A stretch of 64,000 bases of DNA, taken from Escherichia coli. GTDB taxonomy: Bacteria > Pseudomonadota > Gammaproteobacteria > Enterobacterales > Enterobacteriaceae. Position numbers: made by a program. Shown piece by piece: positions 40,601-43,600 of the stretch (the stretch's first letter is position 1; each line of letters opens with the position of its first letter). The DNA is taken from the NCBI RefSeq assembly GCF_045037415.1, contig NZ_CP173438.1; one strand, given 5' to 3'.

Positions 40601-43600
40601 TACGAGGATCTTCACGGTAAAAGCACCATGCCAGCCAGCGTTAGTCCCGCTGCCGTGCCAATCAACATTACAGGTTTATCCGCTGTGAAACGACCGCTAA
40701 TCACTGCTTCATGCAGCGCCGTGGGGATAGAGGCCGCGACCTGATTGCCGTAAAAACGATACACATCGATGAGCGCAGATTCCGGCACTCGCAGCCGTTT
40801 ACGCATATGTTCAAGGGAAAGATGACTGGCCTGATGCGGAACGACCGTGCCGATATCAGACAGTTGCAGGCTGCTTTTTTGCAGCAACCGAGAAAAATAA
40901 TCTTCAATAAGCGAAGAAGCAAAACGAAACAGCGGTTTCCCCTGCATATGAAAAAGAAAGTCGCTATCACTCACACCAGAGCGAGGATTACGCCGCGTAC
41001 CGCCAGCACGAATTTCACACAGTTCGCTGCCTTCGGGATACATTTCGATCAGGCTAGCGATAATCCCGCTGCGCCCATCGCCCCGCTCAACAATCGCGCA
41101 CGCCGCGCCATCACCAAAAATTAATGAAGACTCTTCATGATCCCAGTCGATACCGCGTGAAGCAATATCTGCCGAAACGATGGCAATGCGTCGATATGCT
41201 CCACAGTTTAATAATCCGGCAGCGACTTCAAGAGCGGAAATAAAGCTCACACAGCTACTGTTGATATCAAACCCGGCAACGCCTACGGGCATGGCTGCGG
41301 CTTTAAGAATATGAATTGCGCTACAGGGTAATGCCTGTACGGCAATGGCCGATGCACAAATTAGCAGATCAATATCAGAAGGATTTAAGGCTGCCGCTAC
41401 TAACGCATTATGTAAAGCCTCTGCCGCCAGTTCGGCCTGGCTGGCGTCGTTGCGGGCAAAATAGCGCCAGCAAATACCGGAACGTCGCTCAACATAGCCA
41501 ACTGGCTTATTTAACTGAACATCCAGTTGTTTAGAAGTGATTTGATCAGGGGGTAAGGCGATCCCCGTGGCGATTATTTTTAACGCCGCGGAGATCGTCG
41601 GTTGATTAGGTCGAGCCACGGTCAGTGCTCCTTCACTGCTCCATAGGTGGACCAATCATATAGATGAAGTACGTTTCCCTACAATCCGAAAAATCGGCAG
41701 TGTGTAACCGCCGATGTTTGGTTTAGATAATGTTTGGTTTAGATAATTAGTGACGAGCGCGCACCAGCTGATACTTACGCGTCAGATACTCCACCGGGAC
41801 ACTCCAGATGTGTACCAGACGCGAGAACGGGAACAGCAGGAATAACGTCATCCCCAACACCAGGTGCAGACGGAAGATAAACGCCACGCCATCAAGATGT
41901 TGAGAAGCGCCACCGTGGAAGGTCACTACCGACTGCGCCCAGCCAACCAGTTTCATCATCTCGCTACCGTCCATATGCTGAGCAGAGAACGGAATGGTCA
42001 GCAGGCCCAGCGCGCACTGGATAACGAGCAGCGACAGGATCAGGATATCCGCTCCGGTAGTCGTTGCACGCACGCGTGGGCTGAACAGACGGCGTTTCAA
42101 CAACAGCACGCCGCCAATCAGACACAGTACGCCGCTGGCACCACCAGCAAACATCGCCATTTTCTGCTTCACTTCAATCGGCAGCCAGGCTTCATACATC
42201 CAGTGCGGCGTCAGCATACCGAAGAAGTGACCGACAAAAATCCCCAGAATACCGATATGGAACAGGTTCGACGCCAGATTCATCCCTTTGCGATCCAGCA
42301 TCTGGCTGGACGCCGCGCGCCAGGTATACTGCCCGTAGTCATAACGCAGCCAGCTACCAATCAGGAAGACCGCCCCGGCTATGTACGGGTAGATATCAAA
42401 GAAGAACATATTCAGGAATTGCATTAGTGCTGTCCTCCGGTGGTGATATTCAGATATTGCGGCGCGACGGCACCGGCAAAGCGACGCTGATGAGCAGTGA
42501 TTGCTGAATCACCGCAGCCTTTGTCAGCAAAGAATTTAACCTGCTCTTCTTCCCAGACTGCATCCAGCGCCTGCGGCGTATCGTCGCGCGCTTCGTCGGC
42601 AATTTTTTCCGCCACTTTGTCGCTGTCGATTGCGGTATTCGCCAGTTTCAGCAGCAGATCAAACAGCACGGCATAACGGCTTTCACGCTGTTGCAGACGC
42701 GCACTCAGCAATGCCAGAATCGGCGCAATATCTTTCAAACCCTCCACGGCTTCGCTTTGCGGCAGCTGCGCCAGGTACTCCAGATACAGCGGCAGATGGT
42801 CGGGCAATTCGCGGCTGTTTAACTGCAAGCCGTGCTGCTCGTACTGCGCCAGCAGATCCACCATCGCCTGGCCGCGGTCACGGGATTCACCGTGAACATG
42901 TTCAAATAGCAACAGTGACGTGGCGCGGCCACGGTCGAACAGTTCGCTGTACTGCGCCTGGGCATCGAGCGGATCCATCGTCGTTAAATCGCGCAGGAAA
43001 ATGCCCAGCGCATGGGCATCCTCTTTTGGCAGATTTTTCGACGCGGCAATCGCCTCAAACATCTCTTGTTGATGCTGCCATAAGGCAGCATCCGGATATT
43101 CAAGGAGACGCGATACAATCACGAGTTCGATCATGGGTGCGGCTCCGTTTTGCTGGTTACGTCGATGGCATCGATACGGCGGCTGTTGAACAGATTGAAT
43201 TTGGTATCTGAACCGTGGCAGCCATCACCAAAGGTAAAGCCGCAGCCATTTTTCTCCGGGAAGGCTTCCCGCGCCAGTTCACGATGACTGCTCGGCACCA
43301 CAAAGCGATCTTCGTAGTTGGCAATAGCCAGATAACGATACATCTCCTGTGCCTGGGCTTCGGTCAGACCGACCTCTTCCAGCGCACGGGTATCGACTTT
43401 ACCGTCAACGGTTTCAGCACGTTTGTAATGACGCATCGCCAGCATACGTTTCAGCGCGCGCAGTACCGGTTTGGTATCACCGGCGGTCAGCAGATTCGCC
43501 AGATACTGTACCGGAATACGCAGGCTTTCGACGTCTGGCAGAATGCCGTTGCTGCCCAGTTCACCCGCGTCTGCCGCAGACTGAATCGGCGACAGAGGCG

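Follow-up and report, generated by a model that had tools for sequence, protein, structure and literature searches.

The 3' flank of narI in the analysed stretch of Escherichia coli DNA (64,000 nucleotides of contig NZ_CP173438.1, hereafter the window) carries a tandem array of 16-bp units that is very probably a neutral, slippage-driven minisatellite (VNTR), occupying the spacer between the narI stop codon and the hairpin which closes the narGHJI unit in E. coli of the phylogroup B2 type. As such, the array is one more slippage-prone intergenic repeat of little biological weight; what is of interest at this junction is the apparent B2-specific replacement of a REP/BIME spacer by the 16-nt unit, together with a terminator arm that is predicted to be strengthened.

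Direct reading of the window sequence revealed the 16-bp unit TGTTTGGTTTAGATAA twice, head-to-tail, at positions 41715-41730 and 41731-41746, in the plus-strand context ...CCGCCGA TGTTTGGTTTAGATAA TGTTTGGTTTAGATAA TTAGTGACG... The array of two perfect units (41715-41746) is assigned to the minus strand, and the transcript-sense unit in the narGHJI mRNA is UUAUCUAAACCAAACA. Tandem Repeats Finder (TRF) delimited the repeat at 41714-41747, with a period of 16, 2.1 copies, 100% matches and no indels, and, together with the direct read, bore out the claim of an earlier note on this DNA that the narI stop and the hairpin are separated by a perfect 16-bp tandem duplication. The matching sequence continues for one base beyond either end, which leaves the phase of the unit uncertain by 1-2 bases. 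About 1.5e-5 perfect duplications of this length are expected by chance per 64 kb; the array is the only one reported by TRF with 100% matches in the 64-kb window, and it has the longest period among the perfect tandem duplications present there, the others having periods of 8, 9 and 11. No further copies of the unit were found elsewhere in the 64-kb window with up to three mismatches allowed.

The gene of the respiratory nitrate reductase gamma subunit, narI, was recognised as an open reading frame at 41747-42424 on the minus strand. Its name was taken from the RefSeq annotation of the ST131 genome of strain 4224, which matches the 341-bp junction query at 100% and is identical to the first 9 kb of the window at 9000 of 9001 positions. 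The stop codon TAA occupies positions 41749-41747 and adjoins the array, which therefore starts at the first base after it. Because narI lies on the minus strand, the order in the transcript is stop codon, two units, hairpin and UUUUU, or, written out on the transcribed strand, narI UAA, (UUAUCUAAACCAAACA)x2, the hairpin AUCGGCGGU-UACAC-ACUGCCGAU, and then UUUUU. The intrinsic-terminator-like hairpin with its U-tract is located at 41686-41715 on the minus strand, and its 5' arm begins with the final base of the array. Scanning of the region 41300-42000 detected no promoter, and the hairpin was not listed by the simple terminator scan, for which reason folding was applied to it. Folding predicted a 9-bp stem and a 5-nt loop, followed by the U-tract, with a dG of -12.8 kcal/mol for the isolated hairpin and pair probabilities of 0.91-1.0. 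A GC-rich stem-loop with a U-tract directly behind it is the arrangement that defines an intrinsic (Rho-independent) terminator, and termination is predicted at this site.

Beyond the hairpin lies the 66-nt leader of the downstream operon (41620-41685, minus strand), which is conserved across Escherichia in alignments. By sequence reading only, a weak promoter candidate may be discerned in it, consisting of TTGTAG (41684-41679), an 18-nt spacer and TATGAT (41660-41655). A GAAGGAG ribosome-binding site precedes the GTG start codon at 41619, so that the operon starts 67 nt past the U-tract (41619 versus 41686).

Several other roles were considered for the array and rejected. A coding role is not supported, since the narI frame ends before the array, only open reading frames of 6-10 amino acids are present on the plus strand, and the longest possible frame spanning the array comprises 10 amino acids. 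It does not resemble a promoter, since acceptable hexamers are absent and the array is located upstream of a terminator. The RNase E-like ACAUU found at the unit junctions is too degenerate a motif to count as evidence. Rfam covariance models gave no match with E <= 1 on either strand of the region 41300-42100. The sequence of the unit was not found in the literature searched, and searches for narI or VNTR in E. coli, for F390 synthetase and sterol desaturase, and for intergenic VNTRs and ST131 returned nothing relevant. The phage collection contained no match to the repeat locus, and the only two matches in the plasmid collection were very large mislabelled 'plasmids' with narI, evidently pieces of a chromosome; therefore, the 16-bp unit is not part of a known mobile element.

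The distribution of the array was analysed in 5426 complete E. coli genomes using a 341-bp query across the narI junction. narI was matched in 5422 of them, while the junction with the downstream gene cluster was present in 673 (about 12%). In the remaining genomes, the homology sets in precisely at window base 41747, with which the stop codon ends, and all 35 cluster-free rows sampled begin at query position 188. Direct reading of the K-12 and M1/5 flanks revealed that they diverge immediately past the narI stop, with no trace of the 16-bp unit. The earlier note had named the occurrence of the duplication in island-free genomes as evidence against its own insertion reading; no such occurrence was found.

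To count the units, synthetic one-, two- and three-copy alleles with flanks of 150 bp and 60 bp were searched against all complete genomes. At the E-value cut-offs applied, a length difference of 16 bp yields a single gapped alignment in the 90-95% identity band, while a larger difference yields a truncated or split match. The two-copy query matched 671 genomes at a coverage of at least 80%, with 383 in the band of at least 99% identity and 288 in the 90-95% band; the one-copy query matched 490 genomes at the same coverage (366 in the 90-95% band), and the three-copy query 543 (379 in the 90-95% band). From these figures, the 671 genomes comprise 124 with one copy (490-366), 366 with two copies, 164 with three copies, a number obtained in two independent ways (288-124 and 543-379), 13 with four copies (379-366), and 4 with at least five (383-366-13). 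The commonest allele is thus the one with two copies, as in the window, and no 0-copy alleles were found among the 671 junction-matching genomes, whose flanks are nearly identical apart from the array. A spread sample of 60 rows agrees with this distribution, with matches of 226 bp in 11 rows (one copy), 242 bp in 32 (two copies), 258 bp in 14 (three copies), and 274 bp in 2 (four copies). Alleles read directly, with matching flanks, contained five copies in EcPF7, three in AVS0713, and one each in GmM077 and CFT073. In two more records, one of them strain N96, the cluster is diverged and the 16-bp unit absent. With its head-to-tail units, whole-unit polymorphism and conserved flanks, the array is a VNTR, or minisatellite, and changes by whole 16-bp units (one to five copies) on otherwise identical flanks are what slippage within a tandem array characteristically produces.

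The alleles are distributed unevenly among lineages. One-copy alleles belong to other B2 lineages (CFT073, Nissle 1917, E2348/69 and similar strains) and mostly carry 1-3 SNPs in the flanks. In genomes with two or at least four copies, every flank is at least 99% identical to the window, and none falls into the 95-99% band; all 14 of the sampled three-copy rows score 93.8%, a value accounted for by the 16-bp gap alone, the flanks being identical to the window. Several of the multi-copy records are labelled O25b:H4-ST131. For 14 genomes, 36-40 kb around the locus was retrieved and SNPs were scored against the window; the 12 multi-copy genomes compared differ from it by no more than 6 SNPs in 36 kb, and polarity was taken from a one-copy outgroup lineage, FDAARGOS_144/A21, at about 111 SNPs in 36 kb. 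In the branching order inferred from these data, the ancestral 28443A is kept in the first group, Z0117EC0013 and ST131 isolate 86, both with three copies. The substitution 28443 A>G is shared by Z247, BCE-1 and a poultry strain, with three copies, and by Ecol_244 and CH4794, with four. Among the derived genomes, 24509 A>G marks LS4 (two copies) and EcPF7 (five copies), 56160 T>A marks CD306 (two copies), and the window, 4224 and 2406_w1, all with two copies, have lost one of two tandem tRNA-Tyr genes.

In this sample, therefore, the two earliest-branching groups have three copies, four copies are found in two strains, and the derived group that includes the window has two or five. By parsimony, the ancestor of the clone probably had three copies, and the two copies of the window would be the result of a contraction from three to two, an order that rests on three informative SNPs, ignores recombination, and constitutes moderate evidence. 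At least 3-4 length changes stand against 15 SNP events in 36 kb of this near-clonal 14-genome sample, a ratio based on few informative sites with recombination ignored. Copy number is mostly clade-structured among the 14 genomes, and for this reason the locus is not regarded as hypermutable at the scale of a single outbreak; moderate evidence suggests that the array is mutable and yet stable enough to mark sublineages. Since sublineages of the clone to which the window belongs, ST131-labelled genomes included, can be told apart by their 16-bp length classes, with three copies in early-branching and two in derived members of the sample, a simple PCR-size or in-silico marker is conceivable.

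These observations suggest a simple history for the array. The founding allele would have been a single 16-nt unit making up the entire spacer. The AT that follows the unit ATTATCTAAACCAAAC repeats its first two bases, and in the one-copy allele AT lies on either side of ATTATCTAAACCAAAC; replication slippage at this 2-bp microhomology could have given rise to the first duplication. From two copies on, misalignment during replication would add or remove whole units, a mechanism suggested by the whole-unit pattern observed, and the two-copy allele of the window probably arose by the loss of one unit from a three-copy ancestor. The proposal of the earlier note that the array is a recent slipped-strand duplication is supported as far as slippage is concerned, given the whole-unit changes on identical flanks, while its 'recent duplication' finds no support, since the basal relatives have three copies and the window probably reflects a contraction.

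The gene cluster downstream of the array, called an island in the earlier note, is a seven-gene lipid-type operon at 34738-41619 on the minus strand, co-directional with narGHJI and delineated on the basis of RefSeq annotation, Pfam and open reading frames. Its genes encode a KAS III-like protein, an NAD-dependent epimerase/dehydratase, an MBL-fold hydrolase, an F390-synthetase-related protein, a PAP2 phosphatase, a protein of the fatty acid hydroxylase/sterol desaturase family, and a fatty acid desaturase. Pfam supports six of the seven proteins, the F390-synthetase-related protein being without a match. The far boundary of the cluster is a tRNA-Tyr gene predicted by ARAGORN at 34637-34721 on the plus strand, convergent with the operon and 16 bp from its end. 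The window has one such gene, and most close relatives are annotated with two in tandem. The same interval in K-12 contains tyrT, rtT, tyrV, three more rtT repeats, REP, and narI's own terminator.

A scan for the conserved leader in one genome per species found it adjoining narI in E. albertii NBRC 107761, Escherichia sp. E1V33 and Escherichia sp. MOD1-EC7003, the last with two tRNA-Tyr genes at the far end of the cluster. In these three genomes and in E. coli N96, the spacer between the stop codon and the hairpin consists of about 135-200 bp of REP/BIME sequence and lacks the 16-nt unit. The identity to the window was 88% for the operon and 90.9% for narI in E. albertii, 90.1% and 94.0% in N96, and 91.6% and 96.3% in E1V33. 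In MOD1-EC7003 it reached 98.5% over 7,082 bp of the operon, with 93.6% for narI and 96.3% on the purU side. The presence of the cluster beside narI in several Escherichia lineages, with these levels of identity, indicates that it has long resided at this locus within Escherichia. The premise of an island insertion is corrected accordingly: the lipid-type operon sits between narI and tRNA-Tyr across the genus Escherichia, and recombination with a MOD1-EC7003-like lineage, not insertion by a mobile element, is the probable source of the B2 copy.

These homologies all end at about 41708-41715 and resume at 41747; thus, the 16-nt unit and the 5' arm of the hairpin form a B2-specific junction segment. 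The 5' arm is ATCGGCGG in the B2 form versus ATCGCCAG or similar elsewhere. The dG calculated for the isolated hairpin was -12.8 kcal/mol in ST131, -10.2 kcal/mol in CFT073 and between -3.6 and -6.7 kcal/mol in the other lineages, while K-12's narI terminator has -11.6 kcal/mol; according to these folding predictions, the change in the B2 5' arm strengthens the hairpin. Neither the K-12 flank nor the REP/BIME spacers of the other Escherichia, when aligned with it, offered a convincing origin for the 16-nt unit.

Among alternatives to slippage, the earlier note had suggested that the two units may be a junction scar of the island insertion; such a scar would be a target-site duplication or an att-type direct repeat, produced when the 7-kb cluster integrated next to narI. 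The position of the unit is what speaks for this: it lies exactly where homology with cluster-free genomes stops (41747) and also where homology with other Escherichia clusters stops (about 41708-41715), and the unit and the hairpin 5' arm are specific to the B2 junction form. However, both copies are adjacent at the narI end, and none is present at the tRNA-Tyr end even with three mismatches allowed. A single unit is found in 124 cluster-bearing genomes, while others have three to at least five, and an 'empty site' with one unit is absent, the cluster-free genomes being without the unit. Neither annotation nor Pfam revealed an integrase or transposase among the seven cluster genes, all of which are annotated as encoding enzymes, and the narI-to-tRNA-Tyr locus holds the cluster in E. 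albertii and in two further Escherichia lineages outside E. coli as well, there with a different spacer. A scar of this kind is therefore very unlikely. What survives of the junction idea is that, judging from the alignments, the single unit and the hairpin 5' arm are specific to B2 and mark the place where narI-type and cluster-type ancestry appear to meet. An error of assembly or sequencing in the window is less credible still, to the point of being negligible; draft assemblies can miscount short tandem arrays, but the two-copy allele is found in 366 independent complete genomes and the alleles follow SNP-defined sublineages.

A different alternative to neutral slippage is that the array is a functional spacer, its copy number setting the distance from the stop codon to the hairpin and so tuning nitrate-induced read-through from narGHJI into the lipid operon, or the stability of the nar mRNA 3' end. 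Folding of constructs with 0 to 5 copies gave hairpin pair probabilities of 0.91-1.0 at every copy number and a constant minimum free energy of -41.2 kcal/mol for 1-5 copies, with the repeat units 63-85% unpaired; the prediction for the array is thus an A/C/U-rich linker that lacks structure and does not disturb the hairpin. The distance from stop to hairpin amounts to 15, 31 and 47 nt for one, two and three copies, respectively. In measurements on a Rho-independent terminator in E. coli, termination was almost fully repressed at 8-9 bp after the stop codon, its efficiency was 0.12-0.8 at 17-18 bp, depending on the sequence, and a plateau of about 0.9 was reached beyond 30 bp (Li et al. 2016, PMC4824070). 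On this scale, one copy (15 nt) falls within the sensitive range and two or more copies on the plateau, so that one-copy lineages could leak more nar transcription into the lipid operon, which is co-directional with narGHJI and starts 67 nt after the U-tract. However, all alleles with at least two copies would be equivalent under such a model, and yet alleles with three, four and five copies persist. Moreover, the published distance relation was obtained for one terminator, lambda tR2, and is sequence-specific (PMC4824070), and the lipid operon is preceded by a conserved leader of its own, in which a promoter may lie. Taken together, a tuning function of the spacer appears unlikely. Slightly less likely again is a version in which the array acts as a length 'rheostat' of the narGHJI terminator: at 15 nt the terminating ribosome could partly suppress termination and couple the lipid operon to nitrate/anaerobic induction, while two or more units (at least 31 nt) would uncouple it in the ST131 lineage. 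Given the variation that is tolerated, the array is most likely selectively neutral.

Several known systems may be compared with the narI array. Like the constructs of Li et al. 2016 (PMC4824070), it forms a spacer that is unstructured, low in GC and variable in length, and that separates a translated gene from a Rho-independent terminator, a type of sequence that tuned the efficiency of termination in that study; those constructs are an engineered series before lambda tR2. The REP/BIME elements of E. albertii, E1V33, MOD1-EC7003 and N96 are found at the very site of the array, downstream of the narI stop and ahead of the KAS III operon leader. However, REP/BIME sequences are imperfect palindromes of about 35-40 bp with a REP consensus, whereas the unit is 16 nt long, non-palindromic and predicted to be unpaired, and has no recognisable similarity to them. 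In the tests applied, the array showed none of the defining features of a target-site or att duplication, a REP/BIME element or a known RNA family.

VNTR, or minisatellite, loci are used for MLVA typing of E. coli and Shigella, and slipped-strand mispairing is the accepted mechanism of their variation. The narI array resembles them in being intergenic and head-to-tail, with a unit length within 10-40 bp, whole-unit differences between strains and conserved flanks. Unlike them, it is present only in about 12% of complete E. coli genomes, the carriers of the cluster, and its range is small (one to at least five copies) and largely clade-structured rather than highly variable. Another VNTR of B2 E. 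coli separates clbR from clbB in the colibactin (pks) island, and higher clbR expression is reported for its longer arrays (review PMC11688353). Like that locus, the narI array is a short-unit, non-coding repeat of strain-variable copy number that borders on a cluster of accessory biosynthetic genes. The clbR-clbB VNTR is located upstream of a regulator gene, while the narI array precedes a terminator, within an untranslated 3' spacer; with this difference, the clbR-clbB VNTR is the nearest named analogue of the narI array in B2 E. coli.

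The hairpin that follows the 16-bp repeat downstream of the narI stop codon (window 41693-41715) differs in B2 E. coli from its counterparts in other Escherichia, represented by L007, L009, L010 and L011 (Escherichia sp. MOD1-EC7003), at two or more positions of the 5' arm. These changes turn a weak stem of -3.6 to -6.7 kcal/mol, as in the other Escherichia, into a terminator-grade one of -10.2 to -12.8 kcal/mol, and the REP/BIME spacer has been lost in the same B2 lineages that carry the strengthened hairpin. Between this hairpin and the KAS III-like gene, the leader (41620-41685, minus strand) is strongly conserved from E. 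albertii through E. coli. It contains, on the same strand, a weak candidate sigma-70 promoter (TTGTAG, 18 nt, TATGAT) and a ribosome-binding site, GAAGGAG, ahead of the GTG start, and may represent the promoter or regulatory region of the operon itself.

E. coli M1/5 has a narI segment matching the window at 99.4%, yet lacks the lipid-type cluster; an IS4-family transposase is inserted there directly next to a K-12-type narI terminator (L005 1749-2948). A frameshifted IS4-family transposase pseudogene also lies between adhE and tdk, at approximately 26780-27830 of the window as placed from positions 5100-6147 of the related locus L012, and is common to all ST131-like relatives examined and to the lineage with a single 16-bp unit (FDAARGOS_144/A21).

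On the other side of the cluster, tRNA-Tyr is present as a single gene in the window (34637-34721), as well as in ST131 strain 4224 and strain 2406_w1, while 10 of the 12 other close relatives compared carry a tandem pair (118-bp spacing; see L012-L021). A tandem pair is also found in MOD1-EC7003, and the K-12 site reads tyrT-rtT-tyrV-rtT x3. One tRNA-Tyr gene was probably lost in the most derived sublineage through recombination between the tandem genes.

At the far end of the window, a lambdoid prophage carries a helix-turn-helix gene in which a 15-bp unit resembling TCAACAGTTGACGGG is repeated roughly five times (positions 1019-1117; TRF periods of 15 and 30). The copies look like origin iterons within an O-like replication-initiator gene. 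Excisionase and integrase genes adjoining ompW (~7250-8600) form the end of this prophage. In PLSDB, the narI junction was detected in two very large non-mobilizable records, CP054248.1 (542 kb) and NZ_CP141085.1 (386 kb); both are probably pieces of a chromosome that were submitted as plasmids.

The seven-gene lipid-type operon (34738-41619, minus strand) shares 98.5% identity with that of MOD1-EC7003 (L011 695-7775), whereas the flanks share only 93.6% (narI) and 96.3% (purU side); these identities suggest that different lineages of Escherichia have exchanged the cluster by recombination. Its epimerase/dehydratase gene contains an imperfect 16-bp tandem repeat (39804-39838; 2.1 copies, 84% matches) whose sequence is not related to that of the unit beside narI. 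A literature search on the seven-gene cluster returned nothing; its combination of KAS III, reductase and adenylating enzyme presumably bears a loose resemblance to Ole-type lipid pathways.
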